DNA from: an uncultured Elusimicrobia bacterium | GTDB taxonomy: Bacteria; Elusimicrobiota; Elusimicrobia; UBA1565; UBA9628 | DNA: 64,000 nt | Assembly: GCA_903881545.1 (NCBI GenBank) | Contig: CAIRTQ010000048.1 | Span: forward strand, 25,914 to 89,913 | Direction of reading: 5' to 3' | Part shown: positions 11,424 through 39,607 of the stretch, piece after piece | Numbering within the stretch: the first letter of the stretch is position 1 | Layout of the letters: every line of letters begins with the position of its first letter | Notes under the pieces: generated by a model | The model's database searches: none | What the model saw: only the letters and a program-made list of their open reading frames with translations | What the model was told of the DNA's origin: nothing | Translations under genes and position numbers: made by a program

Positions 11424-11426
11424 TCT

Positions 11427-13565: not shown

Positions 13566-13567
13566 GT

Positions 13568-16681: not shown

Positions 16682-16727
16682 ACCCCATTCCGCACTGCAA
16701 CCTCGCGCAGTCCGTGCGCGTTATTTC

Positions 16728-17699: not shown

Positions 17700-17976
17700 G
17701 CTTCTGGTATTGGTGGTCTATGACATCAGGTCGCCGAAGCGGCTGGCGCGGATGGGCAGGCGCATGAAGGATTTCGGGGTGCGCGTGCAGAACAGCGTTT
17801 TCGAGTGCCGTCTGGCGGTCTCCGAGTATCCGAGGCTGAAGGATGCGGCGCTGAAGATCGTGGACCCGCGGGTGGATTCCCTGCGGTTATACCGGATCTG
17901 CGCGGCCTGCGAAGAGAAGGTGGATTTCCTGGGCGCGGAGGTGCCGGGATTGCCTGACGATGTGCTTGTCCTGTGA
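17677..17976 (+). CDS. cas2: Cas2
   Basis: MPIAGKHELLVLVVYDIRSPKRLARMGRRMKDFGVRVQNSVFEC is the canonical Cas2 fold signature. Overlaps the end of cas1. Confidence 0.8.
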   Translation: MPIAGKHELLVLVVYDIRSPKRLARMGRRMKDFGVRVQNSVFECRLAVSEYPRLKDAALKIVDPRVDSLRLYRICAACEEKVDFLGAEVPGLPDDVLVL

Positions 17977-18200
17977 CCGCCAACTTGCCCGAGGTAGAAA
18001 GGGGGGGGTGGCTAGCGGTCTGGGTCTTGCGGGATTTCGGGAATGGAGTTATGCTTGTGCGGTCGGTGCAATTCTGCGGCGGCGTTGTTGGGATCGGTTG
18101 TCGGAGCAGGTTGGAGGTGGGATTGTCGGAATGGAATAGAGAGGGGTTAGCGGAATGGGGCCGAATTGGAGTGGGATTAGTAGAGGTATTTTGGGCTGCG
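17977..18200 (+). promoter_or_regulatory. Putative CRISPR leader
   Basis: Locally less GC-rich segment between cas2 and the first repeat, with reiterated GGAATGG-like short motifs. Confidence 0.45.
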
Positions 18201-19336: not shown

Positions 19337-19355
19337 AGCCCGGTCAGTTCCAGAG

Positions 19356-21142: not shown

Positions 21143-22114
21143 TTAGGCGGAGGTTCCCAGCAGGCCTGCGGTCAGCGTCGCGGCGTCGAGCAGCCTGCGG
21201 CCGCGGACGATGCGCATCGCGCAGAGTTCGCGGGTCGCATTCTTGAGCAGAAGCAGGATATCCGCGGGCGGGCGGTGCATGCGGCGCGCGATCTGCGCCG
21301 GGGAAAGGCCATCGACCAGGAGCATCTTCAGCGCGGCGCTTTCGGCCGGGTGGTCCTCGGCGAGGGCCTCAAGGTGCTCCTCCTTCAGGATGAAGTGGCC
21401 GCGGACGTAGTCGAGCGCGGCCTTGGCCGTGGCGAGGTCGTAGCCCATCTCGCGCAGAAGGGCCGCTGAGCCTCGGGTCACCAGCAGTTCGGTGTCGTCG
21501 CGGTCCATGATCGGGCCCGCTTCATCGTGCGGCACGCGCAGGACGTGCGTCAGGAACAGCGCGAGCTGGTAGTTTTCGTTCTTAAGCGCGTAGAGCGCAT
21601 CCATCACCTCGCGCCTGAGCCGTGCGACCCAGAGAGCTTCGAGCGGCGGCAGGTCCTCGGCGGAAGTGACCTCCGCCAGCTCCCGCTGCGCTCCTTCCTC
21701 GGTTGATATCTTGCCGTTGAGCGAACGGGCCCTGACGATGATTTTTCCATCGTCCTCGTCGGATCCGGACTCCCTTTGGGGCCGTTCTTCGCTGCTGTAG
21801 ACGCGGTACTGGGTCCGGGTGAAATTGTACGCGACCGTATCGGACCAGGAGAGGAAATTGCCTTTCTCCGGGTTCCATTTCTCGTTACGGATCTGGAACA
21901 GGACGTATGCCTCGGCGGCCTTGATGTGGAGCTTCAGATCCAGGAAGAACGCCTTTCGGTCGCTCGGATGGAAGATCCTGAGCATGGCTTTCTTGACGGA
22001 GGCTTCCAGGCCCGGGCGCATGAGAGCCTTCAGGGATTCCTCGCCCCGGCGCTTCCTGTTCGAATAGCTCCGGGCGAGAGTGTTCGCCCGTTCGTGGTCC
22101 CTAGGCATGGTCAT
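21143..22114 (-). CDS. Atypical sigma-70-family factor
   Basis: Region-2-like FLSWSDTVAYNFTRTQYR and region-4-like HTH LSPAQIARRMHRPPADILLLLKNATREL, with a ~100-aa acidic insert between them. Tail-to-tail with the CHAT gene. Confidence 0.45.
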   Translation of the reverse strand: MTMPRDHERANTLARSYSNRKRRGEESLKALMRPGLEASVKKAMLRIFHPSDRKAFFLDLKLHIKAAEAYVLFQIRNEKWNPEKGNFLSWSDTVAYNFTRTQYRVYSSEERPQRESGSDEDDGKIIVRARSLNGKISTEEGAQRELAEVTSAEDLPPLEALWVARLRREVMDALYALKNENYQLALFLTHVLRVPHDEAGPIMDRDDTELLVTRGSAALLREMGYDLATAKAALDYVRGHFILKEEHLEALAEDHPAESAALKMLLVDGLSPAQIARRMHRPPADILLLLKNATRELCAMRIVRGRRLLDAATLTAGLLGTSA

Positions 22115-25658: not shown

Positions 25659-27779
25659 TTACGCCGCACTCCCCACCAGCTTAAACGCCGCCCAATGATA
25701 CGGATGCGGATGCGCGCGCATCACCGCCAACTGCGCCTGCCGTAACGCCTCCGCCTTCCGCTTCCCCTCGGCCAGATGCTTGTAGAACGCCGTCACCAGC
25801 CGTCGGGCCACCGCGTCCTCGATGTCCCACAAGGTCACCACCACCGACCGCGCCCCGGCCATCAAGAACGCCCGGTGCACGCTCTCCACCTCGTCGCAGC
25901 CCCGGTGCCGCCCCTGCGCCGTCTTGCAGCAGCTCAGAAACGCCAGGTCCAGCCCCGACAAAGGCAAGTCCAAAATCTCATTCACGCGGAGCAAGCCGTC
26001 ATCCCCATCGTGCTCCGCCAGGATCAGGTGCGAGCCCAAGGCGTCGTCCGGCGAAAACTCCCCGTGGCAGGCGATGTGCAGAAGGCCGCAATGCCGGCAA
26101 AGCGCCAAAGCCTTCTTGTTCGCCTCAGTCCCCACGAATACCTTCGCGCCCGGGAACACCTTGGCGATCTCCGCGGCCTCTTCCTCGGCGTGCGCCAGCC
26201 CGCCCGTAGGATTGGCCAAAGCCAGCAGGCCTTTCCGCGAAGGCCGCGGATGGCTTGAGGCCGCCAGCATGGACGCATGGGGCAGATAGCTCACCGGCAA
26301 GCGCTCCAGCAGCGGCTTGCCGTCAGCCAAAGGCAAGGCCGCGAAAGGCACATCGATGAGAGCGCCGCTCGGCACTACATGCAGACAGGAGGCGGCGTCA
26401 ATCTCATCAGCCACAGGCGCGATCAAGTCCTGCGCCAGGCGCTTCAAAGCCCAATTGCAGAATTGCAGGTTCTTGTCCGTCTGCGCTTGGCGCAGGAAGC
26501 CCTTGATCTGTCCGACCTTGGCGGTCAGGGCCTCCGGGGCCATTTCGATGCGGCGGGCGGCCAGGCCCTTATTGCTCACCGCGAAGATGGACAAGGCGTG
26601 GCGGCCCAGGTGATAGTCGAGAAGAAGTTCGCCTTCGGCAAGCCGGGCCGAAAGCTGTTTGGCTGTCAGAACGGCCTGCGGCTTGACCTTGGCATCGTCG
26701 CTGGTCCGCGAGCGCAACTGCTCGATGAAGACCCGCGCCTTGCAGCGTTGGGAAAGCTCGAGGCCCAGCTCCGGCCGGTCGAGCTGATGGGCCAGGCAGA
26801 TCCCCAGGTCGTAGATGCCGAGCTTGCCCTTCTGGTAGCCGATCCGGCTGTCGTCCGTGGAGTATGTCTCCCGGCCGGATTCCATGATAGCCACGGCCTT
26901 GAGGCATTCCTCAAGCGCGGGCTCAAGCTGGCCTCGGTCGCGCAAAATCTTGGCGAGATGGTAGTTCTCCCATTGGCTCGGGGTATCGTTCTCGGCGTTC
27001 ATTTCCATGGACTGGCGCAGGATCGCCTCGGCCCGGTCCAGGTAGCGCTTGGCGGCCTTTGGATCGGACTCGCGCAGGAATTTGCTCCAGGAGCGGCACA
27101 CCCGGGCTAGCTCGCGCAGGGCCTTGGCCATCGAGCCCTTGGACCTCTCGTCCTTTATCCGCTCAAAGGTATCCAGGGCTTTCTTGAGGTGCTCCTCCGC
27201 ATTGGAAAGGCTCACCTTGGTCTTGGGCCTGTGCCGAGCCCAGATGCGCCCGATCGACCGATAGAAGAGTGCCTCGTAGCGGGTCCATCTATCATCGGCG
27301 CCCCAGGTTTTTTCCAGGTGGCGGAAGACGCTGAGCCCGTTGCTGCAGGCGGCCATCTGCTCCTCTTCCGTGGCGCCGCTCTCGCCCATGGCGCGCCAGG
27401 CCTGCATCAGCCATTTGCAGTTCTCTTGATTGGTTCTGGGCAGGGGCTTGAGCCATTCGAGAGCCTTGAGGGCCGAATTCCGGGAAACACCCTCATGGTT
27501 GAGCGTGCCGCCGAGCATGGAATGCCCCACCCGGGCTTTGCCTGCTTCCAGCCCCATCTTCATCTCTTCAAAGATAGGGACGGCGGCCGCGAAGAGCTGA
27601 TAGGAGCTTTCCAGCCCCTCCGCGATCTCCCGCTCCTCCTTGTCGTTCAAGGCGAAGTACAACTTCCAGCCCGCGTTGTAGGCGGCCTTGGCGCTGGCCG
27701 CGGTGGGGGAACTGCTGCAATCTGCGATGAGCCGGTCCGACTGCCCTTTGTCGGGCGGTTCTTGAGGCATGGCGCTCAA
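25659..27779 (-). CDS. TPR-CHAT protease (Csx29-like architecture)
   Basis: N-terminal TPR-like helical repeats. The C-terminal CHAT dyad is LLHIACHGEFSPDD (His) and LAFLSCCKTAQG (Cys). Coupled to the upstream sigma gene (27776-27779 overlap). Confidence 0.65.
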   Translation of the reverse strand: MSAMPQEPPDKGQSDRLIADCSSSPTAASAKAAYNAGWKLYFALNDKEEREIAEGLESSYQLFAAAVPIFEEMKMGLEAGKARVGHSMLGGTLNHEGVSRNSALKALEWLKPLPRTNQENCKWLMQAWRAMGESGATEEEQMAACSNGLSVFRHLEKTWGADDRWTRYEALFYRSIGRIWARHRPKTKVSLSNAEEHLKKALDTFERIKDERSKGSMAKALRELARVCRSWSKFLRESDPKAAKRYLDRAEAILRQSMEMNAENDTPSQWENYHLAKILRDRGQLEPALEECLKAVAIMESGRETYSTDDSRIGYQKGKLGIYDLGICLAHQLDRPELGLELSQRCKARVFIEQLRSRTSDDAKVKPQAVLTAKQLSARLAEGELLLDYHLGRHALSIFAVSNKGLAARRIEMAPEALTAKVGQIKGFLRQAQTDKNLQFCNWALKRLAQDLIAPVADEIDAASCLHVVPSGALIDVPFAALPLADGKPLLERLPVSYLPHASMLAASSHPRPSRKGLLALANPTGGLAHAEEEAAEIAKVFPGAKVFVGTEANKKALALCRHCGLLHIACHGEFSPDDALGSHLILAEHDGDDGLLRVNEILDLPLSGLDLAFLSCCKTAQGRHRGCDEVESVHRAFLMAGARSVVVTLWDIEDAVARRLVTAFYKHLAEGKRKAEALRQAQLAVMRAHPHPYHWAAFKLVGSAA

Positions 27780-29167
27780 CCTTTTATTGCGTCGCGGCGC
27801 AGGCGCGCGTAATAGCGGTCGCGCTCCGCGCCGGAAAGCCCGCGGGTGGGGGAGCTCTGGCCCTGGGGCGGGGTGCGCATGGCCGCGGCGAGGACCGGCT
27901 CTGTGATGTCGAAGCGTTTCATCAGGCGCTTGAGGAGTCCGGCGGTCAGCAGGCCGGCAGGAGCGGTGTCCGAGAGGATGGCCATGCAGTCATCTTCCGT
28001 GATTCCCAGCCCCTTGGCCAAAGTCGCGGGGTCGCCATCCACGCGCGAGGTGATGAGCTCGCCCAAGGACTGCCGCTTCTCGCTGTCGCCGGAGAAGCCC
28101 AGGGCCACGGCCACGGCGCAGAGGTCGGCCAATTCCTGGGCGCCCGGCTCCACTGCGCCGGCGCGTGTCGCTGGAGCCATGTCCGGGTATTGGGCAAGGG
28201 CCTGCTCCACGCTCTGCCATAGCCAGTCGTCAAGCTTGGGGTCTTCGGCGGCGGGCAGGGCGGGCTTGGCCCGCTTGACCTTGGCCTTGGAAAGGGCGAT
28301 AAGGGCTTGGCGCAGGGTCGCGAGCGCCTGGCGGGGTTCTTGGCGCAGGCCTTCGGCCAGCTTCCCCACGTTGAGCGGCAACTGGCTGGCGAGCTTGAGG
28401 GCCTTCTTGTGCGCCGGGGCCTCCACCAGTTCGACATCGGAGTCCCGGAGGTCCATCCTGGACAGGACAAGCGCTTTTAGTTTGTCGAATCGGGCGTCCT
28501 TGTAATCGGGCAGGGCGCAGAACTTCTGGTGGATGGCAACGCAGGCCCTACGGAAGTGGCTCGCCAAGGTCGCGCGGGGCATTTCGAAGATGGCGCTGAG
28601 GACCTCGTCACTGTGCCCTAAAAAGACCCTGCCGACCCAGATCGCGGCCGCTGTCTCGTTGGCCAGACCGCGCTCGGCGCAAAGGATTGCGTTGAGCATG
28701 TCCATTTCCATGGCCACGCCCACCGGCTGGTCGCAGTAGGCCTGGGGCTCCGCTCTCCGGGAGCGGGGTCTTTCGCTCTGCTCCTCGTCCTCTTCGTCGA
28801 GGTCATACTCGTAGGGGAGCTTTTTGCGCTTCATCGTGTCGAGAAATGCATTCTTGGCAACGGAGAGGGCATAATTCTTGAAATTTTCCGGTTCGTACTG
28901 CTTCTTCTTGAGGGCGCGGGATATGTTGCCCAAGGTGACGCTGAGAATATCGCCGGGGTCTATGTAGGCAGGAACGCCGCTTACGCCGCCGGCCAGGCGG
29001 GAATCCCGTACCTTGGAACATATGAAGCCTTCGACGCAGGCTTGGGCCAGTTTGAGGATTTTGTTGAGCTGGTCTTCGTCAGGCTTCTTATAATAGAGGG
29101 CGATGAGCGCGTCGGCCTCTTTCCCAAAATCCGAATAGATGCTGTTCGCCATAGCTCTCCTGTTCAT
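27776..29167 (-). CDS. ECF/sigma-70-family factor with a ~230-aa C-terminal extension
   Basis: Region 2 is ENFKNYALSVAKNAFLDTMKRKKLP. Region 4 HTH is ETAAAIWVGRVFLGHSDEVLSAIFEMPRATLASHFRRA. A long extra C-terminal region follows. Confidence 0.55.
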   Translation of the reverse strand: MNRRAMANSIYSDFGKEADALIALYYKKPDEDQLNKILKLAQACVEGFICSKVRDSRLAGGVSGVPAYIDPGDILSVTLGNISRALKKKQYEPENFKNYALSVAKNAFLDTMKRKKLPYEYDLDEEDEEQSERPRSRRAEPQAYCDQPVGVAMEMDMLNAILCAERGLANETAAAIWVGRVFLGHSDEVLSAIFEMPRATLASHFRRACVAIHQKFCALPDYKDARFDKLKALVLSRMDLRDSDVELVEAPAHKKALKLASQLPLNVGKLAEGLRQEPRQALATLRQALIALSKAKVKRAKPALPAAEDPKLDDWLWQSVEQALAQYPDMAPATRAGAVEPGAQELADLCAVAVALGFSGDSEKRQSLGELITSRVDGDPATLAKGLGITEDDCMAILSDTAPAGLLTAGLLKRLMKRFDITEPVLAAAMRTPPQGQSSPTRGLSGAERDRYYARLRRDAIKG

Positions 29168-29441: not shown

Positions 29442-30998
29442 TTATGCCTCGCTTAGCTTCGGCCCATCCTCGGCCTCCGGCTCAAACACCACCTCCTTAA
29501 GCCCCGCCCTCTCCGCCCCGCCGCACGCCTCGTCCCCGTTCTCGAACAAGATCGGCGCCAACCCCGCCTCCAGTATCCCCTTCAGGCCGCGCGCTCCCGT
29601 ATGGTTTTCCAACGCCCGCTCGGCCACCCACTCCAGCGTCGCCTGCGGCACCCGCAGGTCCATCCCGCTGGCCCCAAACAAAGCCCGGTACTGGCTCAGT
29701 AGATTATTCCGCGGCTCGGTCATGATGTGGACCAAGTCCTCCTTGGTCAAAGCGTCCAACGCCACCACGCTGGCGAAGCGCCCCACGAACTCAGGCGCGA
29801 AACCGTAGGCCACAAGGTCATCCGTGGTCGCCTGCGCCAGGCAACTGCCGCCTGCATCCGCCTGCTGGCTATGGCCCGCGGAAAAGCCAATCTGCCGATT
29901 CTTCTGCCTCGCCTGGATGAGCTCCTCCATCCCAGCAAAGGCCCCGCCGGCGATGAAGAGGATATTGCCCACGTTGTAAGTCGCGCCCTGATGGGTCACC
30001 GTGTCGCCCTCCAGCAGCTTCAGCAGTTCCTCCTGCACGCACCGCCCGCTGACGTCCCTGTTGCTGTTGTGCGCCCCAATGGCCTCCCTCGACGCGATTT
30101 TGTCCACCTCGTCTATGTAGATGATTCCGGTCTCCGTGCGCTTAAGGTCGTTGCCCGCGGCCTTGTATAGGGCGACCACCATCTCCTCCACGCTCCCTCC
30201 CACATAGCCCGTCTCCGTGTACTGCGTGGCGTCGCAGATCACCATAGGGACGTTCATGACCTTCGCCAAGGTCCGGCACAGGTGCGTCTTGCCCGTGCCC
30301 GTCGGCCCCAGGAGCAGGATGTTCGCCTTATGCAGTTTGTCCATGCCCTTGCGTGTCTTGTTCAGCTTGACCGTCTGCAGGTGCTTGAATACCGCCGTGG
30401 CGATCGCCCGCTTGGCGCGGTCCTGGCCCACCACATACGCGCAGAGCTTCTGATGGAGCGACCGGGGGGAACACTTGGCCGGCGGCCGGCCGGCCCGCTT
30501 GGGCTTCTTGCCCACCACGCGGTCGAGGACCGCAGGCTCGACCGTGAATTGTTCCGGCGCCCCGGAGGACTGGAACCTGTATGCAAAGCCGGGTACGACG
30601 AGCTTCTTCTTGATGAGCTTGGCGTCGCTCTGCCAGTACTTCATCAGCGCGATCTTTCCCAGATGGCTTGGGGCGCTGACCAGCTTCCGGATCACCGGAA
30701 TCCTGTTGAGCTCGCCTTCAGCGCAGACCGCCGCGTAAACGAGAATCCACAGCATCTGCACCTCGACATCGTCGAGCCTGTTCTTGCGGGCCAGCTTCTC
30801 AAGGGGAATGTCTACTCCGTCGAGCAGTGAAGCTTTGGCCTTGGCCCTGATCTCGCGATACATGGGAAAAAGGCCATTCTCGGCCGGGCTTTCGGAATCC
30901 TCCCGTCCAGGCCTGGACCGGGTCTGCTCGCGCAGGAGTTCGACGAACGCGAAGCAGTCGTTGAGATACTGCGTATTATCGGCGTAGCATTGATCCAT
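29442..30998 (-). CDS. ClpX-like AAA+ unfoldase with a non-canonical N-terminal domain (no zinc-binding domain)
   Basis: Walker A LLGPTGTGKTHL. Also TGYVGGSVEEMV, Walker B IIYIDEVDKIASR, GGAFAGMEELI and LDALTKEDLVHIMTEPRNNLLSQYRALF, all ClpX hallmarks. The first ~190 aa lack the C4 zinc-ribbon. Confidence 0.7.
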   Translation of the reverse strand: MDQCYADNTQYLNDCFAFVELLREQTRSRPGREDSESPAENGLFPMYREIRAKAKASLLDGVDIPLEKLARKNRLDDVEVQMLWILVYAAVCAEGELNRIPVIRKLVSAPSHLGKIALMKYWQSDAKLIKKKLVVPGFAYRFQSSGAPEQFTVEPAVLDRVVGKKPKRAGRPPAKCSPRSLHQKLCAYVVGQDRAKRAIATAVFKHLQTVKLNKTRKGMDKLHKANILLLGPTGTGKTHLCRTLAKVMNVPMVICDATQYTETGYVGGSVEEMVVALYKAAGNDLKRTETGIIYIDEVDKIASREAIGAHNSNRDVSGRCVQEELLKLLEGDTVTHQGATYNVGNILFIAGGAFAGMEELIQARQKNRQIGFSAGHSQQADAGGSCLAQATTDDLVAYGFAPEFVGRFASVVALDALTKEDLVHIMTEPRNNLLSQYRALFGASGMDLRVPQATLEWVAERALENHTGARGLKGILEAGLAPILFENGDEACGGAERAGLKEVVFEPEAEDGPKLSEA

Positions 30999-31278: not shown

Positions 31279-31372
31279 GGATTTTAACCGGACAGGAGGG
31301 TTTCGGCCTGGGATTTGGGGGAGCCTTAGGATTTTAACCGGACAGGAGGGTTTGCCTGGGTTTTTGGGGAGC
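31279..31372. repeat. Tandem direct repeat (~48-bp unit, 2 copies) upstream of the HNH gene
   Basis: GGATTTTAACCGGACAGGAGGGTTT...GGGATTTGGGGGAGCC occurs twice in tandem, with minor differences between the copies. Confidence 0.55.
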
Positions 31373-31450
31373 CTCGCGCCCTGCACGATGCTTTTGAGGC
31401 GAAGGCGCAGGATAGGGGGAACTATTCTCGGGGTCATTCGTATATTCAGC

Positions 31451-32662
31451 ATGGACCTCGCCCGGATTTCTGATGAGGCGCTGATGGGCAAGGTGGAGGC
31501 GCTGGCCGAGACCGAACGCTTCAGCTTGATCGACTTCCTCATCCATCTGGGTGAACTCGACCTGCGCACCGCCTGCCAGAACAGGGGCTATGCGTCGGTC
31601 TTTGCCTACCTCACCCGCCACCTGGGCTATTCAGAAAGCGACGCCGTAAGGCGCATCCGAGTCGCCCGCGCGGCGCGGAAGTACCCGTCGGTACTGCGCA
31701 TGCTTGCCAGCGGCGACCTGCACCTGGTCGGCGTGGCCATGCTCGAGCCGATCCTCACCTCCGACAACCATGAGCGGCTGTTGCGTCAGGCCTCACGCCG
31801 GAGCACGCGGGAGGTGGAGCGCCTTGTCGCCGGGCTGGCTCCCGCCGCAGTCGAACCGCGCGACCGCATCCGGCCCCTTCCCGCGTCTTGCGCAAGCGGC
31901 GCCGGCCGGCCTTCGGGAGATGCCGCGCCGCTCGGCATGGAACCATCGCCCTTGCCAAGCGCCGGACTTGCGCTACCGGTTGACCTTGTCCTTGCCGCCG
32001 GACCCGCCTCGTCTTGCACCCCGGCTGCCCCCGTCATTGCCGCCGGACCCGTTACGCCTTGCGCGCCGGCAAGCCCGGCAAGGGATCGCGTGGTGTTCAC
32101 CTTTGCCGCGGGCGAGCAGGTACAAAGTTGGTTCGAGGAGGCCCGCGACCTGCTCCGGCACCGCTTCCCCATGGGCCGCATGGAAGATGTGATCGGCGAA
32201 GCCCTCAGGCGGCTGGTGGAGGCCGAGCGCCGCGCCTTCCTCGCACTGCCGTCAGCGAAGCCCCTGCGCCCGCCGTCAACTCAGCACCGCGGTCCTTCTT
32301 CTCCGGAGCGCAGCGGACCTGCGCCCGTGCCGGCTGCAGGCTCCTCGCCTGAGAGCCGCTATGTCCCGCGGCGGGTCAAAGACGAGGTTTGGCGCCGGGA
32401 CTCTGGCCGGTGCGCTTATGTCAGCGCGGACGGGGTCCGCTGCGGCGAGACGGCTTGGCTGGAATGGGACCATGTCGTGCCGCGGGCCATGGGCGGAGCC
32501 TCGAACGACCCGGCGAACATCCGCCTGCTCTGCCGGGCGCACAATCAGTCAGAAGCGCGGCGGATCTTCGGCGATGCCAAGTGTTCGGGCCGCAAGACCG
32601 CGGCTGATGCAACGGCGGTCAAGAAAGGTGTTCCCGTGCCGAGCTCCGGAGCGCCTGCATGA
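31451..32662 (+). CDS. DUF222 (13E12-repeat type) HNH endonuclease
   Basis: N-terminal DUF222-like (ALMGKVEALAETERFSLIDFLIHLGELDLR). C-terminal HNH (CAYVSADGVRCGETAWLEWDHVVPRAMGG...NIRLLCRAHNQ). Confidence 0.6.
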   Translation: MDLARISDEALMGKVEALAETERFSLIDFLIHLGELDLRTACQNRGYASVFAYLTRHLGYSESDAVRRIRVARAARKYPSVLRMLASGDLHLVGVAMLEPILTSDNHERLLRQASRRSTREVERLVAGLAPAAVEPRDRIRPLPASCASGAGRPSGDAAPLGMEPSPLPSAGLALPVDLVLAAGPASSCTPAAPVIAAGPVTPCAPASPARDRVVFTFAAGEQVQSWFEEARDLLRHRFPMGRMEDVIGEALRRLVEAERRAFLALPSAKPLRPPSTQHRGPSSPERSGPAPVPAAGSSPESRYVPRRVKDEVWRRDSGRCAYVSADGVRCGETAWLEWDHVVPRAMGGASNDPANIRLLCRAHNQSEARRIFGDAKCSGRKTAADATAVKKGVPVPSSGAPA

Positions 32663-32664
32663 CG

Positions 32665-33753
32665 TCACGCATGCGCGCATCCTTCCGGCTTGCGCAAATC
32701 TATTGCGCGTCCCCACGGCATGTCCGCCTCCGAGGTCAGGCACCAGAGCACCGGATATCCCTTGGGGGCGGATTTCGGGAAGGTCCCGCAGCCGTCGGTC
32801 AGGTAGAGCAGAACATCGGGCCGCAGGCGATTCTTGGCCACCTGGTCGAATACCGGTTGGAAATCCGTCCCGCCGCCTCCTTTGAACTTCAGCTTCTTGA
32901 GAAAATCAGCCAGCCCGTCCGCCCGGACCGCTTCATGGACCTTGGCGTCGCAGGTCATGACGGTCAGCGTCTCGCAGAACGCGGATATGGCTTTGAGCTC
33001 GGCGGCGAAGGTTTCGAGCATATCTTTCGAGATCGAGCCCGAGGTGTCCACGGCGACCACCAGCCGGCCTTTCTGCCCGGCAGCCGGCCCCGGCAGGTAC
33101 TGCTCCTGCCACACGCGCCTGCGGTTTGGCGGCAGGTAGGACTGCTCCTCCTTGCCTAATGACTCCCGCAGGTAGCGCCGCAGAAGCCTCTGCCAGGGCA
33201 CCTGGCTGCGGCGCAGTCCCTTGACCAGCCGGGCGATGCCCGCCGGCAGTCTGCCGCGGCCCGAGCAGGCGGCGGCCGCGGCCAGGACCCGGCCTATCAT
33301 CTCGCCCGACATCTCCTCGCGCAGGGGCAGATGCTCGTCCAGGCATTTCAGGATGATGGCCGGCGATTGCAGCTCGTAGATCTGTTCCGCGGTCATACCG
33401 TCGTACTTCCGGTCCAGCAATACCCCTTCAGGCAGATCGAGGCGCATGTCGCGCAGCTCTTGGTTGACCGCGAAATCACAGGCCGCGTTCCATCTGAAAT
33501 GCTCCCGGCCCGCGCGCCGGGAAGGGTGGCAGTGCAGGTAGGCGATGTGCAGAAGCTCGTGCATGAGCACACCGGCGGTCTCCTCGTTGGTGAGCTTGTC
33601 CAGGAACGCCTTGTTGTAGAAGATGCGCTCGCCGTCGGTGGCCATGGTTGCAAGGCTGGGCTCCTCCGAAACCCCGGCCATGGCCAGTAAGGTGCCGAAA
33701 AAGGGCTGGTCCATGGCCAGGCGGGTCAATGCCCGCTCAAGCTTATCTGACAT
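32665..33753 (-). CDS. VWA-domain protein with an N-terminal HExxH putative metallopeptidase domain (DUF2201-like, MoxR partner)
   Basis: HELLHIAYLH (HExxH). VWA MIDAS-like VVAVDTSGSISKDM. Overlaps the MoxR gene end. Confidence 0.6.
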   Translation of the reverse strand: MSDKLERALTRLAMDQPFFGTLLAMAGVSEEPSLATMATDGERIFYNKAFLDKLTNEETAGVLMHELLHIAYLHCHPSRRAGREHFRWNAACDFAVNQELRDMRLDLPEGVLLDRKYDGMTAEQIYELQSPAIILKCLDEHLPLREEMSGEMIGRVLAAAAACSGRGRLPAGIARLVKGLRRSQVPWQRLLRRYLRESLGKEEQSYLPPNRRRVWQEQYLPGPAAGQKGRLVVAVDTSGSISKDMLETFAAELKAISAFCETLTVMTCDAKVHEAVRADGLADFLKKLKFKGGGGTDFQPVFDQVAKNRLRPDVLLYLTDGCGTFPKSAPKGYPVLWCLTSEADMPWGRAIDLRKPEGCAHA

Positions 33754-34738
33754 AAGCCATCACCATCTTGGACGCCATGTTGCGCAGGGCCGGGTGCGCC
33801 GCCAGCCGGGAGACCAGCTTGGGCGGCAGGCTCTTGAACATCAGCACGCGCAGTTCCGGGGTCACTGCTTCCAGCAGGCTTCCCAGATGCGGGACAGCCC
33901 CATCTTCGATGTCGTGGCGGGATATGTGCGAAGCCACGGCCAGAACCACCGCGTAGCGCACGCTCGCATCGTTCGGGGGCAAGGCGGGCAGCTTGCCCGC
34001 CAGTATCTCCTTGACCTCGATGGCGCGGTAGATCCGGCACCAGCCCGAGAACTCGGAGGCCGCGCCCTGGCCCACGGCCGAGGCCACGAGCTTGACCTTC
34101 TCCGTTGCGGGCTCCTGGCCCGAGTAAAGGCGCGAGGCCGCGGCCCAGGAGCGGGGGGTGGGGAAAGCGGGCTCGCCCGTGTTCTTGCAGAGCAGTTCCG
34201 GCCGGAAGCGCAGGAATGAGACCATGTCGCCGTTGACTCCATTCTCCTTGGCCCAGGCCGCCCAGGTGTCCAGGTCCGGCTCCACCTCCACATGGAGCAT
34301 GCGGTTGGCCAGGGCCGAGCCCAGGGCCGAGGAGAGGGCGTCGTCTTCCTCGCGGTTGCCCGCTGCCACCACGCGCCAGCCGGGAGGCAGGACATAATCG
34401 CCCACGCGGCGGTCCAGGACCAGCTGGAGCGCCGCGTTCTTGACCAACGAGGGGGCCTTGTCTATCTCATCGAGGAACAGGACTCCCTTGCCCTCGCGGG
34501 GCAGAAAGGCGGGGGGATACCAGACCAGCTCCTTGGCGCCGTGGTCAGGCACGGGCAGGCCGCGCAGGTCGGTGGCGTCGAGCTGGGCCAGGCGCAGGTC
34601 GCGGACCGGAAGCTTGCGCTTGGCCGCGGTCTCGGCCACGAGGGAGCTCTTGCCAACGCCGGGTGGGCCCCAGAGCATCAGCGGGATGTCGAGGGTCAGT
34701 GATTTTTCGAGGATGAGCCTGGCTTCGTTGAGGTTCAT
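33743..34738 (-). CDS. MoxR-family AAA+ ATPase
   Basis: LMLWGPPGVGKSSLV (Walker A), VLFLDEIDKAPS (Walker B) and the AAA_5-type VLPPGWRVVAAGNREEDD. Start taken at the internal Met (MNLNEARL) of the longer ORF. Confidence 0.75.
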   Translation of the reverse strand: MNLNEARLILEKSLTLDIPLMLWGPPGVGKSSLVAETAAKRKLPVRDLRLAQLDATDLRGLPVPDHGAKELVWYPPAFLPREGKGVLFLDEIDKAPSLVKNAALQLVLDRRVGDYVLPPGWRVVAAGNREEDDALSSALGSALANRMLHVEVEPDLDTWAAWAKENGVNGDMVSFLRFRPELLCKNTGEPAFPTPRSWAAASRLYSGQEPATEKVKLVASAVGQGAASEFSGWCRIYRAIEVKEILAGKLPALPPNDASVRYAVVLAVASHISRHDIEDGAVPHLGSLLEAVTPELRVLMFKSLPPKLVSRLAAHPALRNMASKMVMAYVR

Positions 34739-35211
34739 GGTTTGCCTCTGAAGTGCTTGCGAAAGTCGGTGAATAGGCCTGGGTGACTGCAAATGCAGAT
34801 CGGCTCTCGGCCGGTCTTTGCCAGCAGCAGAATAGGCATGGTCAAGAGGTGGGCTTTGCGCGGGGCGAGCAGGATGGCGATGACATGCTTGCACAGGCTG
34901 CCTCCGCCGGATGAGACTTCGACCTTCCGGGCGCCGTCCGGGCAGGTGCAGTGATGGCCGTTCTTCCCGCTTAGGTCTATGGAAACATGATAGGGTTCGT
35001 CGCCGCCGCGGACCATGTAGGACGCCTCGGCCTTGCCGGCCGCGAGCCGTTCGAAATTGTATCTCCTGCGCACCTTTTTGGCCCGAGCCAGGCGGAGGCG
35101 GAATCCCAAAGGATCGAAGGGGACGGTCTCGGTCCATTCTTTTGGGACGACGGGGCGTTTTCTTTTCATGTCCTTTTCAAGCTGCCAATGCGGATAAGAG
35201 CAAAGCCGCAT
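34735..35211 (-). CDS. SWIM zinc-finger protein
   Basis: HHCTCPDG...CKHVIAILLA is a CxC...CxH SWIM signature. Confidence 0.5.
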   Translation of the reverse strand: MRLCSYPHWQLEKDMKRKRPVVPKEWTETVPFDPLGFRLRLARAKKVRRRYNFERLAAGKAEASYMVRGGDEPYHVSIDLSGKNGHHCTCPDGARKVEVSSGGGSLCKHVIAILLAPRKAHLLTMPILLLAKTGREPICICSHPGLFTDFRKHFRGKP

Positions 35212-35482
35212 GGCCTTCCTGCAAGGCGGCGACCACCAGATGCCGGCAGATGACGGGGCCCTTGTTCATCCGCCGGACCAGCCCTCCCCAGGCCCAATCC
35301 CGGCAGGTGCAGTAGTGCCGGCCCTGGCCCGAGATGTCGAGGTACACATAGCAGGTCCGGCCGTTGTGGCGGGCGCGCAGGACGATCTCCGAGGCCTTGC
35401 GTTCGATCTCATCGAGGCGGACCTCGTCGCGGCTCTTGCGGGAGAACCACCCCGCGATGGACTTCCGCGGCATGGCGATCAT
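35177..35482 (-). CDS. SWIM zinc-finger protein (paralogue)
   Basis: HYCTCRDW...CRHLVVAAL is a SWIM signature. Overlaps both neighbours. Confidence 0.5.
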   Translation of the reverse strand: MIAMPRKSIAGWFSRKSRDEVRLDEIERKASEIVLRARHNGRTCYVYLDISGQGRHYCTCRDWAWGGLVRRMNKGPVICRHLVVAALQEGHAALLLSALAA

Positions 35483-36807
35483 GACCCGGCCTCGATCCCT
35501 TTCGGAAGGTCCTTCTTTCCGTTGCCGTTGCTGGCTCCGTTGCCGGCGCCGTTGCCGCTGGGGACCGCGAAGCCGACCGAGGCCAGGGGCTTGAGGGCGC
35601 CGTCCGCCTTGAAGTTCGTGTCGAGCTGGGACCTGAGCTTGGCGACGCTGTCTGTAAGGTCCGTGTCGCGCGACGGCCGGCCTTCGTTGACGCCGTGCAG
35701 AAGGGCCGCGACCGCGGTTTCCTGGACATAGGCCATGGAGAACCCGTGGCTGTCCCGCGCGGCGCGGCGCAGGGCCGCCTCGCCGAAGCGGCCGAGCCCC
35801 TTCTTGCGCAGGAGGCGCAGGCGCTCGTCCTCGCCGGGCAGGCCGAAATGCCAGACCTTGTCGAATCGGCTGGGCCGGTTGAGCAGGGCGGGGTCGAGCT
35901 TTTCCGGGGCGTTGGTCGTGGCGATGACGATGAGCCCGTCCGGCGCGGTGATGCCGTCGAGCAGGTTCAGGAGGTAGGACAGAGAGACCTTCGTGCCGTC
36001 TTGCAGGCGGTCGAGGTCTTCCAGGATGAGGATGGCTGGCCCTTCCTCGGACGGCATGCGGAAGGCGCGCGCCAGGGTGGCGTCGTCGATGTCGCTCTTG
36101 AGCGGCAGGAGGAATATGCCGACCTTGGTGTTGGCGGCGATGATCTTGGCGGTCAAGGTCTTGCCGCAGCCGGGAGGGCCGGAGAACAGGAATCCGCGGC
36201 GGAAGGGAAGGTTGAGTTCCTTGTAGAGCGGCTTGGCTTTGAGGAAGCTGCGTACGCTGTCGCGGATCTCCTCGATGCGGCCGGTAGGCAGGACCACGTC
36301 GTCCCAGCCGAGCTTGGGCCGCGGGATGGGGCCCTCCTGGAAGATGTAGATGCAGGAGGTCCTGGAGTTGAAGCGGCGCTCGAATGCCTTGAGCTCGCGC
36401 CAGAGGTCTTCGAGAGCGTCGCGGTCCTTGATGGCGATCAGCGTGCTTGGTTCCTCCCCGAAGCGCATCACCAGGGAGAACCTCTGATAATGGACGGGGG
36501 TATTCTTCCAGACGAAATCAATCTCGCCGACCCAGGTCTCCTCGTCTATCCCCGCGCCGCGGCGGTGCAGGGGGGGAGTGAGCAGGCTCTGGCGCCGTCC
36601 GGACTTCCCGGAGTCCCAGTCGATGCTGGGAGAGACTTCTTCGCGGACGACGGCGCCCGGCGCATGGGAGCGCAGGAAGGCGGGCAGGAGCGCGTGGCTC
36701 ACGCTCGACGCATGGGGTGCGATGCGGTAGGTCAGCCAGCCGTCCGACAAGGGGTGCTTGCGCCGGAACTCGGCCAGCTTTTCATCGATGAAGTGTGAAT
36801 CGCTCAT
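35479..36807 (-). CDS. Classic-clade AAA ATPase with an N-terminal domain
   Basis: LFSGPPGCGKTLTAK (Walker A), ILILEDLDRL (Walker B), ATTNAPEKLDPALLNRPSRFDKV (second region of homology). Gly/Asn-rich C-tail. Confidence 0.7.
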   Translation of the reverse strand: MSDSHFIDEKLAEFRRKHPLSDGWLTYRIAPHASSVSHALLPAFLRSHAPGAVVREEVSPSIDWDSGKSGRRQSLLTPPLHRRGAGIDEETWVGEIDFVWKNTPVHYQRFSLVMRFGEEPSTLIAIKDRDALEDLWRELKAFERRFNSRTSCIYIFQEGPIPRPKLGWDDVVLPTGRIEEIRDSVRSFLKAKPLYKELNLPFRRGFLFSGPPGCGKTLTAKIIAANTKVGIFLLPLKSDIDDATLARAFRMPSEEGPAILILEDLDRLQDGTKVSLSYLLNLLDGITAPDGLIVIATTNAPEKLDPALLNRPSRFDKVWHFGLPGEDERLRLLRKKGLGRFGEAALRRAARDSHGFSMAYVQETAVAALLHGVNEGRPSRDTDLTDSVAKLRSQLDTNFKADGALKPLASVGFAVPSGNGAGNGASNGNGKKDLPKGIEAGS

Positions 36808-36870
36808 ATCATTCCTCCTGCTTATGAAACGGCCCCGGCAGGCGCCAGGTTGCAGTCCGGCGCGATGCTC

Positions 36871-38127
36871 CTAGGCCGAAAAGCCGATGGACTGCGGGCT
36901 GCCGACAGCGGCGCTGCCGCTGGAAGCCTCCTTGATCTGGACTTTGAGCTGGGCCACGGCCGTGTCCAGATGCGCGTCAACGGCCTTGACCTTGGCGTGC
37001 AGGGCCGCGAGCATGGCGCTGGTAAGGGCTTCCTGGACATAGGCCATGGAGAAGCCCTGGGAGGCCTTGGCGGCGCGTTCGACGGCGGCGTCGGAAAAGC
37101 CGGCCCGGTTCTTGAGCTTGAGCAGGGCGAGGCGCTCGGCGAAGCCGGGGAGCTTGAACTCCCAGACCCGGTCGAAGCGGCTGGGCCGGTGCAGGAGCGC
37201 GGGGTCGAGCCGCCCCGGGTTGTTGGTGGTGGCGATGACGATGATGCCTTCCGGACAGCTGAGGCCGTCGAGTGTGTTGAGCAGGTAGGCCAGGGACACC
37301 TGCCTGCTGTCCACCATCTTGTCGAGGTCTTCGAGCAGGAGCACGCAGGGCGCGTTGTGCACGGCCGTCGAAAAGGCCTGGTCCATGGTCCTTTCGTCGA
37401 GGTTGCTCTTGATGAGCAGGGTGACCATGTTGACGCGGTATTCGGACGCGATGACCTTGCTCACCAAGGTCTTGCCGTTGCCGGGGGGGCCGATGAAGAG
37501 GAAGCCGCGGCGGTAGGGCAAGCCCATCTCTTTGTACGCCGGGCGCGCTTTGAGGAAGGCTTCGAAGTTGTCGCGGATCTGGGCTTTCATGCCGTCGGGC
37601 AGGACCACGTCCGTCCAGCGCTGCTTCGGCCTGGGCAGGTCCGGCCCGTTGATCACGTTGATCTTCCTGATGAAGGTGTGCCGGCGTTGTTTACAGAAAC
37701 GCAGCCCTTCTTTCCAGAATGACTCCAGGGCGGCCAGGTCCGTGGTCGCGATGAAAGTGAGCTCATGGGCGGTGGGGCCTTCCCTGGGAGCCCACAGCCG
37801 GCGCAAATGGATGCGGGCGCCGCGCCATTTGAGGCTGATGTCGCCTTGCCAGTCGTACTCGATGGCGCCCTTGCCGCGGAGCATGCGGGGGAGGTAGGTC
37901 AGGCGTTCCCGGACATGGCCCTGGTCGTAGAAGATATGAGTGACGATGGCCTCATCGAAGTCCGCGGGCTTGAGCGCGGAGCGCAGGAAGGCCGGAGCCT
38001 TCGGTATGAAGGACATGTAAGAGTTCGCGCAGAGATGGACATGCCAGCCGTCCTCGGCCGGATGCCGGGCGCGGAACCGGGAGCGTTCGTCCTTTATGAA
38101 TTCGTGAAGGGTCATGGGTGCCTCCAC
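36871..38127 (-). CDS. Classic-clade AAA ATPase (paralogue of 35479-36807)
   Basis: LFIGPPGNGKTLVSK, LLLEDLDKM, ATTNNPGRLDPALLHRPSRFDRV. N-terminal domain similar to the paralogue. Confidence 0.7.
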   Translation of the reverse strand: MEAPMTLHEFIKDERSRFRARHPAEDGWHVHLCANSYMSFIPKAPAFLRSALKPADFDEAIVTHIFYDQGHVRERLTYLPRMLRGKGAIEYDWQGDISLKWRGARIHLRRLWAPREGPTAHELTFIATTDLAALESFWKEGLRFCKQRRHTFIRKINVINGPDLPRPKQRWTDVVLPDGMKAQIRDNFEAFLKARPAYKEMGLPYRRGFLFIGPPGNGKTLVSKVIASEYRVNMVTLLIKSNLDERTMDQAFSTAVHNAPCVLLLEDLDKMVDSRQVSLAYLLNTLDGLSCPEGIIVIATTNNPGRLDPALLHRPSRFDRVWEFKLPGFAERLALLKLKNRAGFSDAAVERAAKASQGFSMAYVQEALTSAMLAALHAKVKAVDAHLDTAVAQLKVQIKEASSGSAAVGSPQSIGFSA

Positions 38128-38278
38128 TCAATGAACGCCCTCAGGGAACGATAGGTTGCAGATAGCCTCGGTGAGGACAGAAGACGGATGCAACATTCCT
38201 GCCCCCAGCGGCGTTTAGTCAAGCAGAAGCGACTCACTAAACGGTCAAGCTAAACCATAAGGAAGGCGGTCCAAGACC

Positions 38279-39607
38279 ATGAATCTCATTATCCACCGCG
38301 GCACCCAAGAAATCGGCGGCACCCTCATCGAGCTCCTCTCCGGCAAATCCCGCATCATCCTCGACGCCGGCCTCCCTCTCATGGACCCCGGCGACAAAAC
38401 CAAGAAGCTCACGCTCAACCTCCGCGGCAAGACCACCAAACAACTCCGCGACCTCGGCATCCTCCCCGCCGTGCGCGGCCTCTGGGCCGGCCTCGACGAC
38501 GGCCCCTCCGTTGACGCCGTCCTCCTCTCCCATCCCCATCAGGACCACTACGGCCTGCTCCGCTACATCCGTTCCGGCATCCCCATCTATCTCAGCGCCG
38601 ACACCCTGCGCATCCTCAACCGCTCCAATGTCTTCATCAAGCCCGGCGTCCAGGTGCGCGACGCCCAGTTCCTCAACCACCGCAAGCCCAAAAGGGTCGG
38701 GGAAACTCCCTTCACAGTCACGCCCTACACTATGGACCACTCCGCCTACGGCGCCATGGCCTTCCTGATCGAGGCCGACGGCAAGCGGCTCTTCTACACC
38801 GGCGACTTCCGCGGGCACGGCCGCAAGGCCGCGCTCTTCGAAGAGCTTTGCGCGGAGCCTCCCCGGCGCATAGACCGCCTCCTCATCGAAGGCACCACCC
38901 TCGGCAGCGACAGCCATGATGACAAGACGGAAGGGCAGCTTGAAAACGAGCTCATCAAGGCTTTCCGGCAGTATTCCGGCCTCAAGCTCGTCAGCGTCTC
39001 CGGCCAGAACATAGACCGGCTCGTCACGCTCTACCGCGCCTGCAAGCGCTCCGGCCGCGTCCTGGTCATCGACCTCTACACCGCCGCCATCCTTGAGGGC
39101 ACGAAGCGGAGCAGCATCCCGCATCCCGGCCCGGACTGGCGGGATGCGAAGCACCTGAGGATCCTGTTCACCAAGAAGTACGAGCAGATACTCCAGAAGA
39201 ACCCGTCCTATGACGAAGTCCTGGACCTCTCCGAACCCTTCCGCATCACGCAGGATGAGATCGGCCGCGACCCGGGCCGGCACGTGGTCATCTTCCGGGA
39301 TTCCTGCCTGGACGAGTACACGGCCATCGGAGACTGGGGCAAGGCCGCGCTCATCTACTCCCAATGGAAGGGCTACATGGACGAGCCGGCCTTCCAGAGG
39401 ACCGCGGCAAAGCTCAAAACCCGCGGGGTGGACATCCTTTCGCACCTGCACACCAGCGGGCACGCGTCCAAGGCCCATATAAGCAGACTAATCGAGGCGC
39501 TTGCGCCCAAGGTCCTGACGCCGATCCACACATTTCACGCGGACGCCTTCAAGGAACTCTGGCCCAAGGTCGAGCTTCTTGAGGACGGGATGCCGCATGA
39601 AGTCTAA
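38279..39607 (+). CDS. beta-CASP-family metallo-beta-lactamase-fold nuclease
   Basis: MBL motif VLLSHPHQDHYGLL. The beta-CASP motif C is HTSGHASKAH. Confidence 0.6.
   Translation: MNLIIHRGTQEIGGTLIELLSGKSRIILDAGLPLMDPGDKTKKLTLNLRGKTTKQLRDLGILPAVRGLWAGLDDGPSVDAVLLSHPHQDHYGLLRYIRSGIPIYLSADTLRILNRSNVFIKPGVQVRDAQFLNHRKPKRVGETPFTVTPYTMDHSAYGAMAFLIEADGKRLFYTGDFRGHGRKAALFEELCAEPPRRIDRLLIEGTTLGSDSHDDKTEGQLENELIKAFRQYSGLKLVSVSGQNIDRLVTLYRACKRSGRVLVIDLYTAAILEGTKRSSIPHPGPDWRDAKHLRILFTKKYEQILQKNPSYDEVLDLSEPFRITQDEIGRDPGRHVVIFRDSCLDEYTAIGDWGKAALIYSQWKGYMDEPAFQRTAAKLKTRGVDILSHLHTSGHASKAHISRLIEALAPKVLTPIHTFHADAFKELWPKVELLEDGMPHEV

Follow-up and report, generated by a model that had tools for sequence, protein, structure and literature searches.

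A putative two-module ATPase and metallopeptidase cluster in a variable genomic island of an uncultured Elusimicrobia bacterium

The described combinations of a MoxR-like ATPase with a VWA protein (NorQ-NorD, RavA-ViaA and CbbQ-CbbO, and midasin) are joined by the vWA-MoxR-VMAP systems (PMC7159879) and IetAS, in which a nucleoside triphosphatase and a VWA co-chaperone occur together with proteases, some of them caspase-like, in variable islands; neither SWIM nor DUF2201 is mentioned by Kaur et al. 2020 (PMC7159879). Among classical AAA proteins, YjoB is a soluble hexamer and a substrate-specific chaperone composed of an N-terminal domain (1-159) and an AAA domain, and its Bcs1-like N-domains form the roof of a chamber (PMC9565160). 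Elements of both kinds meet in the locus examined here, a cluster of six co-oriented minus-strand genes in a 64,000-nt stretch of an uncultured Elusimicrobia bacterium (contig CAIRTQ010000048.1; hereafter the window). The genes encode two paralogous ATPases (AAA1 and AAA2), two small zinc-finger proteins (SWIM1 and SWIM2), a MoxR-like ATPase and a DUF2201 protein that combines a metallopeptidase-like domain with a VWA domain.

We read the cluster, with moderate confidence, as a chromosomal composite of two modules lying within a larger, variable ATPase/protease conflict island. Module A comprises the AAA ATPases, which are Bcs1/YjoB-like. Module B, the SWIM-MoxR-DUF2201 core block, is a genuinely conserved module. 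By analogy with described systems, the whole is probably a variant of the ATPase-driven conflict systems used against invaders.

Gene layout and the conserved core block

The gene starts were fixed by start-codon inspection and homologue lengths. The six genes span 32665-38115, with a third-codon-position GC content of 0.76-0.88 (from the open reading frame (ORF) listing and codon-position GC; Table 1). Pfam confirms the domains that the initial annotation had named for them, SWIM1 being recognised through its CxCx18CxH pattern and its homology to SWIM2. The Walker A and B motifs, the HExxH motif, the DxSxS motif of the metal-ion-dependent adhesion site (MIDAS) and the CxCxnCxH ligands of the SWIM proteins are all intact. 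The same annotation held that all neighbours overlap by 4-35 nt, and this stands at four junctions, one of them start-dependent: 4 nt are shared by the AAA2 stop and the SWIM1 start, 4 nt by the SWIM2 stop and the MoxR start, and 11 nt by MoxR and DUF2201, while SWIM1 and SWIM2 overlap by 35 nt if SWIM2 starts at 35211 or are separated by 7 nt if it starts at 35169, the start that fits the homologue lengths. It does not stand at AAA1/AAA2, where the 63-nt spacer is the sole definite non-overlap. No terminator-like hairpin was found in this spacer; a promoter and terminator consensus scan of the cluster returned counts at chance level, with none inside the cluster, and Rfam gave no match in the cluster region. 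A single transcript for the six genes is plausible. The divergent intergenic region upstream of AAA1 is likely the promoter region of both AAA1 and the neighbouring metallo-beta-lactamase (MBL) gene, and no sigma70-type consensus was found in it. Regarding the MoxR gene, the 464-aa ORF first assigned to it is over-extended, its upstream part being without homologue support: the homologues measure 324-339 aa and their alignment begins at the ATG at 34738, which gives 331 aa.

The MoxR-like ATPase scores above the cut-off for Pfam AAA_5 (9.4e-7; 29.4 bits vs 22) and matches neither the AAA_3 nor the bpMoxR model in Pfam; in the PDB, it is related to the midasin AAA domains (2.6e-11) and to NorQ (2.6e-4). 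Its Walker A (GPPGVGKS) and Walker B (VLFLDE) motifs are intact. The adjoining protein matches DUF2201_N (2.1e-36) and DUF2201/VWA (1.3e-26, 93.5 bits), with HELLH at residues 65-69 and DTSGS at 236-240. In a 38-sequence DUF2201 alignment, H65, E66, H69 and H74 are invariant, as are the MIDAS residues D236, S238, S240, T296 and D320. Foldseek comparison of its AlphaFold2 model (predicted local distance difference test (pLDDT) 83.5) identifies the N-terminus as a helical zincin matching the minigluzincin selecase (4qhi), and the C-terminal VWA domain matches integrin I-domains, Cav alpha2delta, the MDN1 MIDAS domain and NorD. SWIM2 (PF04434, 1.4e-7; CTCx17CKH) and SWIM1 (PF04434, 1.2e-3, just under the Pfam cut-off; CTCx18CRH) are distant paralogues (E 4e-8), and PADLOC returned a weak PDC-S62 match for SWIM2.

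To judge from NorQ/NorD, RavA/ViaA and midasin, the MoxR ring would take hold of the VWA/MIDAS protein, and ATP would serve to remodel either this protein or an acidic ligand bound at its MIDAS. Since the VWA protein carries its own minigluzincin, a proteolytic output is likely, in the form of an ATP-gated proteolysis of the bound target. For the small SWIM proteins, the role would be that of adaptors or sensors, either bringing in the target or keeping the complex switched off.

The core block recurs in about 10 loci (designated by L numbers below). The order SWIM, MoxR, DUF2201 is kept in the window, L008, L011+L078, L073-75, L076-77, L080, L159-160 and L161, and is interrupted by a PIN/ribbon-helix-helix (RHH) pair in L162. 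The gene directly upstream of MoxR is a SWIM1 orthologue in L008, L011, L073, L076, L080, L159 and L161, and SWIM2 orthologues are present in L008, L009, L011, L073 and L162. By identity, the MoxR homologues themselves form two clades, a tight one of at least 54%, which holds the window MoxR, and a broad, phage-like and largely phage-borne one of at most 46%. When only distinct loci with enough upstream sequence are counted, a hidden Markov model (HMM) finds a SWIM gene upstream of MoxR at nine of ten tight-clade loci vs none of 47 broad-clade loci, one possible broad-clade SWIM (L095) being recognised by motif. DUF2201 follows MoxR at 30 of 42 broad-clade loci and at every tight-clade locus for which sequence is available.

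The tight-clade block usually extends further upstream. It recurs as lipoprotein (~210 aa)-PEGA protein (~715 aa)-SWIM (one or two)-MoxR-DUF2201, often preceded by an ECF (extracytoplasmic function)-sigma-like protein (~500 aa) and a TPR-CHAT protein (~710 aa); in some cases PCMT-CHAT comes after the block, and in some a ClpX-like ATPase stands ahead of it (L159). The commonest setting of the core is therefore behind the lipoprotein and PEGA pair and not behind AAAs. The lipoprotein, p211 (211 aa), has a lipobox, and the PEGA and p679 (~680 aa) proteins have signal peptides (L161 5510-8302 and 10952-12181; L078 3575-5614). These exported proteins bear on the view that the genes form an envelope or ECF-sigma signalling/assembly system, not an immune one, with the window as a reduced variant. 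The MoxR/VWA chaperone would then mature or turn over the exported PEGA protein or lipoprotein, and folded proteins would be the substrates of the Bcs1-like AAAs. Consistent with this are the N-terminal transmembrane helix of the Bcs1-like AAA in L161, the presence of the ECF-sigma-like partner, the translocation of folded protein by Bcs1, the chaperone nature of YjoB and the description of the characterised MoxR/VWA pairs as maturation chaperones. Such a system is rather unlikely here, taking into account that every exported component is missing from both the window and L008, that the distribution is patchy and the gene content highly variable, that the neighbours are WYL regulators, nucleases, toxin-antitoxin and restriction-modification genes, and that the closest wider MoxR-DUF2201 relatives reside in lytic phages.

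The MoxR-like ATPase matches PHROG 1297 (1.9e-83, positions 5-349 of 356) and the DUF2201 protein PHROG 1314 (1.1e-83); with full-length matches and tandem genes, the two correspond to the ATPase/DUF2201 pair of phages. By tblastn, the DUF2201 gene was located in 454 phage records (N4-like phages, jumbo phages and Thermus phiFa), where it usually lies a few genes after the ATPase gene and the pair adjoins nucleotide-metabolism genes. The window pair sits in a separate, cellular clade. Phage DUF2201 proteins are often labelled 'HNH endonuclease' in GenBank and in PHROG 1314 (e.g. NC_028908.2, 12325-13482); the window homologue showed no HNH domain, and the label is probably a propagated mis-annotation.

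A phage-derived or mobile-element cargo that served its element (through replication help, host takeover or anti-defence) and became fixed in the chromosome would agree with the standing of MoxR-DUF2201 as a standard early/middle gene pair of N4-like and jumbo phages, with the integrase genes that flank L008 and with the HNH gene that abuts the cluster. This origin is nevertheless highly improbable, as neither tight-clade MoxR nor the full-length AAA family with its N-domain (AAA-N) was found in the 2.9 million viral contigs of IMG/VR, and the surroundings of the cluster showed neither an integrase gene nor an att-like repeat or a shift in composition.

The AAA module and its joining to the core

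AAA1 and AAA2 match Pfam AAA (PF00004) at 3e-24 and 2.8e-21, respectively, and are, as first proposed, paralogues that share their N-domains, with 43% identity over 418 columns at full length (E 1e-109). AAA1 consists of a family-specific N-domain (~1-160), a single classical AAA domain with intact Walker A (GPPGNGKT) and Walker B (VLLLED) motifs, and a C-terminal ...SIGFSA tail; AAA2 has the same architecture, with an ...SVGFAV motif and a low-complexity (NG)n tail. This (N/A)G-rich tail is encoded by a 12-nt tandem repeat, GCCGTTGCCGGC, present in 2.8 copies at 35524-35557. The AlphaFold2 monomer model of AAA1 (pLDDT 86, from 26 homologues) was matched by Foldseek to YjoB (7w42, E 5e-24 over 419 columns) and to Bcs1 (E ~1e-21), the N-domain included. 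These full-length matches identify a Bcs1-type N-domain followed by a single classical AAA domain. The Pfam BCS1_N model scored in the L161 homologue and is absent from AAA1 and AAA2. Matches of the ATPase domain to Cdc48/p97, FtsH and PAN are at domain level, and membership of the FtsH, Cdc48 or PAN families was rejected because all NCBIfam scores fall far under the cut-offs.

Upon alignment with p97, the pore-loop-1 segment of the family is found to be shortened and to lack the aromatic-hydrophobic-Gly motif; this Ar-Phi-Gly loop is absent in 105 of the 112 full-length homologues. All 112 carry a Phi-G-F motif 2-34 residues from the C-terminus, which together with HP..DGW constitutes the family-specific invariant motifs. 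The Phi-G-F tail is modelled as disordered (the AAA1 C-terminus, window 36871-36912). It recalls the IGF loop with which ClpX docks on ClpP, with no ClpP gene nearby, and the resemblance is a lead rather than a result. Owing to the missing aromatic pore loop and the Bcs1/YjoB-like fold, the 'unfoldase-like' character first ascribed to these proteins is doubtful; on the structural model, a role as unfoldases appears unlikely, and that of a chambered holder or releaser of partner proteins more likely. The putative AAA1 and AAA2 rings would hold, release or activate their partners (the MBL protein, possibly the SWIM and sigma-like proteins) by means of the chamber and the PhiGF tails.

A scan of GTDB species genomes for the AAA family yielded 62 loci (Nitrospira, Elusimicrobia, Myxococcota, Verrucomicrobiota and others), of which 61 are without SWIM and MoxR, the exception being an Elusimicrobia metagenome-assembled genome. 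The recurrent partners, found by de novo clustering of neighbour genes, include an HTH-WYL-WCX regulator (27 loci, ~22 of them with its gene immediately upstream), the ClpX-like homologue (in three loci) and a DUF2779/Cas4-like nuclease. In other genomes, AAA pairs precede interchangeable partners, namely an MBL hydrolase, a sigma-like protein with CHAT, or the exported 680-aa protein. A phmmer search with the N-domain only against 1.84 billion representatives gave just 18 hits; the N-domain evolves fast, and this search therefore gives no estimate of family size.

The MBL gene divergent from AAA1 was left outside the limits first drawn for the cluster, and synteny and fusion tie it to the AAAs. 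Its product has weak RNase J/beta-CASP matches, and in L013, L020, L041, L043 and L044 a homologue is encoded no more than a few kb from AAA-N. Furthermore, the fusion protein P0015 combines an MBL part (45% identity) with AAA1 residues 135-412 (57% identity); on account of this Rosetta-stone fusion, the MBL gene is part of the picture.

Bcs1-like AAAs adjoin or interrupt the core block in the window, L008, L011+L078, L159, L161 and L009; not counting the window, AAAs of this family are close to the core at a minimum of five loci. L008, the contig closest in synteny, has the window gene order, with 69% AAA1 identity. In this locus, the AAA2 orthologue (7619-8872) is split over three frames, either as a pseudogene or through an assembly error, and four tyrosine-recombinase (integrase) genes lie upstream. 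In L011, genes of the AAA1 and AAA2 types are interspersed among those of the core. An Elusimicrobia core locus holds separate orthologues of AAA1 (50%) and AAA2 (54%), the latter being 42% identical to AAA1; one AAA is followed by the sigma-like and CHAT genes, the other by the lipoprotein, PEGA and SWIM genes. As each copy has its own orthologues and its own downstream genes, the duplication is old and both copies have been kept. AAA-N was not seen in the flanks obtained (up to 10 kb) of the core loci L073, L076, L080 and L162.

It follows that the co-conservation proposed for the six genes stands in part: SWIM, MoxR and VWA form a conserved block, and the six genes are not one unit. An obligate six-protein machine, in which tandem AAA unfoldases feed the MoxR/VWA-peptidase, would explain the tight packing with its 4-nt AAA2/SWIM1 overlap, the identical gene order of L008, the interleaving in L011 and the closeness of AAA-N to the core in L159, L161, L078 and L009. 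We consider it unlikely, given that the other four genes are missing at 61 of the 62 AAA-N genome loci and that AAA-N is lacking in the flanks just listed; moreover, threading or unfolding is improbable without the aromatic pore loop, and the AAA2 orthologue of L008 is split. We instead regard the Bcs1-like AAAs and the MBL protein as an independently mobile module that has repeatedly joined the core in the window lineage; in the window, it takes the place of the lipoprotein/PEGA pair.

The surrounding island and the favoured reading

The island is bounded by the type III-D CRISPR-Cas locus with its CARF7-MBL nuclease and by a MATE transporter gene (Table 1).

Table 1. Coordinates of the six-gene cluster and of the neighbouring features of the island (window numbering)
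Feature	Position	Strand	Description
Type III-D CRISPR-Cas locus	6137-19263		Cas10d-like 6137-7567; further RAMP 7564-8154; Cas7_IIId fusions 9337-10959 and 11427-13565; Cas1 16479-17699
CRISPR array	~18200-19263		37-nt repeats GTCGGAAAGAAGTGACTCCCTGATAAGGGATTGAGAC
PCMT-methyltransferase-CHAT fusion	19257-21140	+	
Partner of PCMT-CHAT	21143-22114	-	323 aa
MBL/beta-CASP/RMMBL nuclease fused to CARF7-type CARF (Cas_APE2256)	22247-24709	+	820 aa
TPR-CHAT protease	25659-27779	-	CHAT 1.4e-62
ECF-sigma-like protein	27776-29167	-	sigma2/sigma4 family matches; C-terminal extension of ~250 aa
Winged-helix and ClpX-like AAA+ protein	29442-30998	-	Pfam WHD and AAA_2
HNH endonuclease	31352-32662	+	436 aa; long N-terminal region, Pro/Ala-rich linker
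DUF2201 protein	32665-33753	-	362 aa; minigluzincin-like metallopeptidase and VWA
MoxR-like AAA+ ATPase	33743-34738	-	331 aa; AAA_5, midasin-NorQ clade
SWIM2	34735-35169	-	144 aa; SWIM protein; alternative start 35211 gives 158 aa
SWIM1	35177-35482	-	101 aa; stand-alone SWIM zinc-finger protein
AAA2	35479-36807	-	442 aa; AAA1 paralogue; start 36807
AAA1/AAA2 spacer	36808-36870	-	63 nt; carries the AAA2 AGGAGG ribosome-binding site
AAA1	36871-38115	-	414 aa; Bcs1/YjoB-like AAA ATPase; ATG at 38115, GGAGG ribosome-binding site
AAA1/MBL divergent intergenic region	38116-38278	.	163 bp
MBL-fold (beta-CASP-like) hydrolase	38279-39607	+	442 aa; Lactamase_B_2 1.1e-15; divergent from AAA1

The conflict genes of the window comprise the type III-D CRISPR-Cas genes, the CARF-nuclease, two CHAT proteases, AbiEii and HNH. 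Around the homologues, type I restriction-modification, PIN/RHH, toxin-antitoxin, integrase and Cas4-like DUF2779 nuclease genes are found. The initial placement of the cluster in a defence island next to an HNH endonuclease and the CRISPR locus thus holds as regards the conflict-gene island and the adjacent HNH gene and is loose as regards the CRISPR locus, whose array end lies 13.4 kb and eight predicted genes away. The cas genes are flanked by an AbiEii-family nucleotidyltransferase toxin gene (1285-2352, minus strand) and by a short RtcB-like ORF (4722-5708, plus strand), which matches the C-terminal part of the RtcB profile only. The HNH gene is convergent with the DUF2201 gene, with 2 nt between the stops, and the same adjacency occurs in the metagenome contigs L001 and L002; wedged between the six genes and the ClpX-like/sigma/CHAT operon, it may be a mobile insertion that splits the island.

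The other families that recur with the cluster, namely the sigma-like/TPR-CHAT pair, the ClpX-like protein and PCMT-CHAT with its partner, are all present in the window island. The ClpX-like protein scores 2.3e-100 against NCBIfam ClpX, below the cut-off; a winged helix replaces the zinc-binding domain, and the IGF loop (RQIGFSAG) is kept. Its homologues lie directly upstream of p211-PEGA-SWIM-MoxR-VWA in L159 (1-1506, 54%) and of tandem AAA-N in L013 (5243-6952, 45%). PCMT-CHAT with its convergent partner of ~300 aa also stands directly after MoxR-DUF2201 in L076/L077 (L076 10152-12878). The order sigma-like, then TPR-CHAT, is observed in all five loci where the pair was found (window, L011, L073, L080 and L161), and the pair is preceded by the ClpX-like ATPase in the window and by a Bcs1-like AAA in L011.

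Craspase cleaves Csx30 and thereby frees RpoE. The sigma-like/TPR-CHAT pair resembles this Csx29/Csx30-RpoE logic, with no gRAMP. A related explanation makes the cluster an ancillary effector arm serving the nearby type III-D CRISPR-Cas system, switched on by cyclic-oligoadenylate or CHAT-protease signalling, for example through CHAT cleavage of the sigma-like protein and transcription of the cluster by the resulting sigma factor. The type III-D locus, the CARF7-nuclease (likely a predicted cyclic-oligoadenylate-activated RNase of that system) and the two CHAT proteases share the island, the sigma-like/TPR-CHAT pair recurs upstream of the core, no sigma70-type promoter was found upstream of AAA1, and the occurrence of vWA-MoxR systems close to type III loci has been described (PMC10910872). 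We nonetheless find this connection doubtful. No CARF or SAVED domain occurs in the six proteins, the array is distant, no cas families appear in the Pfam tables of called genes at the homologous loci examined, and CHAT cleavage of the sigma-like protein is pure inference. The cluster was accordingly rejected as a type III CRISPR ancillary effector, its linkage being to the window's own III-D locus only.

A CRISPR-independent version of this logic would make the window the site of a reduced form of an undescribed proteolytic signalling system, in which a CHAT-freed sigma factor switches on an effector operon; it is quite improbable. Here, TPR-CHAT would have a ClpX-like or Bcs1-like ATPase as its partner and would cut the ECF-sigma-like protein in its C-terminal extension, and the freed sigma factor would turn on the effector operon. 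The SWIM adaptors and the MoxR motor would then arm the VWA-tethered metallopeptidase, and the chambered Bcs1-like AAAs would release the MBL nuclease.

The two-module composite in a conflict island is preferred over these explanations. A conflict role is favoured by the island context, with WYL regulators, nucleases, toxin-antitoxin and restriction-modification systems and integrases around the homologues, and by the patchy distribution, the modular shuffling and the phage ancestry of the MoxR-DUF2201 pair. In such a system, the genes would be co-transcribed, their products would interact physically, the output would be proteolytic and the role would be directed against phages or mobile genetic elements.

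Several points weigh against this interpretation. Co-transcription across the 63-nt AAA1/AAA2 spacer is assumed, and AAA-N and the core may co-occur merely because they belong to the same type of island. The commonest position of the core, after a lipoprotein gene and a PEGA gene with a signal peptide, points to the envelope and not to immunity, and both genes are missing from the window. The evidence base amounts to ~10 loci, mostly metagenomic fragments from few phyla that are not phylogenetically independent, and the HMM behind the SWIM counts was built from tight-clade sequences, so that divergent SWIMs could escape it. Finally, PADLOC gave no system-level match, with no model matching MoxR, VWA or SWIM1, and the IetA-like hits of AAA1 and AAA2 score far under the family cut-offs.

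The DUF2201 and MoxR-like pair is a common one, in bacteria as well as phages, with thousands of metagenomic proteins besides the phage records. The cellular clade with its dedicated SWIM partners offers a tractable entry, as the intact HExxH, MIDAS and Walker motifs permit clean mutants, and the invariant PhiGF tail is a testable docking motif. To our knowledge, a mitochondrial translocase and a Bacillus chaperone are the only Bcs1/YjoB-like AAAs described so far; if the present reading is true, the Bcs1/YjoB fold would reach into conflict biology through a bacterial AAA family connected with WYL regulators, nucleases and CHAT proteases. The sigma-like/TPR-CHAT pair, in turn, suggests Craspase-like protease-to-sigma signalling outside type III-E CRISPR. 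The synteny network stands out as most original, along with the Bcs1-like AAA family, and the value of the locus lies in the well-delimited hypotheses that it yields.

Comparison with known systems

In the broad sense, the window pair is a MoxR-VWA ATPase and co-factor pair: as in NorQ-NorD, RavA-ViaA, CbbQ-CbbO and midasin, the ATPase directly precedes, in a conserved pairing, a VWA protein whose MIDAS is intact. Unlike in these pairs, the window VWA protein has an N-terminal HExxH minigluzincin, SWIM proteins are added and no metalloenzyme client gene lies nearby; the similarity to NorQ is remote. The extension of a MoxR/VWA-peptidase pair by SWIM and classical AAA proteins, described initially as uncharacterised, is borne out by the domains, and no functional study of DUF2201, PF09967, yehLMPQ or the N4 phage pair was found in the literature searched. 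In comparison with the phage PHROG 1297 and 1314 pair, the full-length matches and the order of ATPase then DUF2201 are shared, whereas the identity is at most 46% and SWIM, CHAT, sigma-like and AAA-N neighbours are absent from the phage pair.

The addition of SWIM to MoxR/VWA, first taken to suggest a larger uncharacterised machine, has a precedent in Escherichia coli K-12, where yehLMPQ already unites AAA_5 (YehL), VWA (YehP) and SWIM (YehQ) in one operon. It differs in that YehP is a VWA_CoxE protein without a peptidase, YehQ measures 614 aa, YehM is a DUF5682 protein and no classical AAA is included. Orthology with YehLMPQ was rejected, with pairwise E values of 0.07, 0.39 and 0.15, no DUF5682 in the window cluster and a VWA protein of DUF2201 type.

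With the vWA-MoxR-VMAP systems and IetAS, the cluster shares the general combination of nucleoside triphosphatase, VWA co-chaperone and proteases in variable islands. Assignment as a vWA-MoxR-VMAP ternary system was rejected, as Pfam detects no inactive STAND, FtsH or beta-propeller domain in the six proteins; the VMAP component was judged from domain tables alone, the libraries holding no VMAP-specific HMM. IetAS was likewise rejected: the NCBIfam model of the IetA family ('IteA_antiphage') scores 64.4 bits vs a cut-off of 510, the PADLOC IetA match is confined to the AAA domain, where the matches are to IetA/TRIP13 only, and no IetS subtilase occurs in the neighbourhood.

The closest structural parallel to AAA1 and AAA2 is provided by Bcs1 and YjoB, with which they share the fold of an N-domain and a single AAA domain, AAA1 being soluble and of YjoB size. 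The L161 homologue has a transmembrane anchor, as Bcs1 does. The identity is ~21%, and, in contrast to Bcs1 and YjoB, the window AAAs are tandem paralogues with family-specific motifs. They also differ in setting: Bcs1 and YjoB serve in respiratory-complex assembly or stationary-phase chaperoning, whereas the window AAAs are located in a conflict island.

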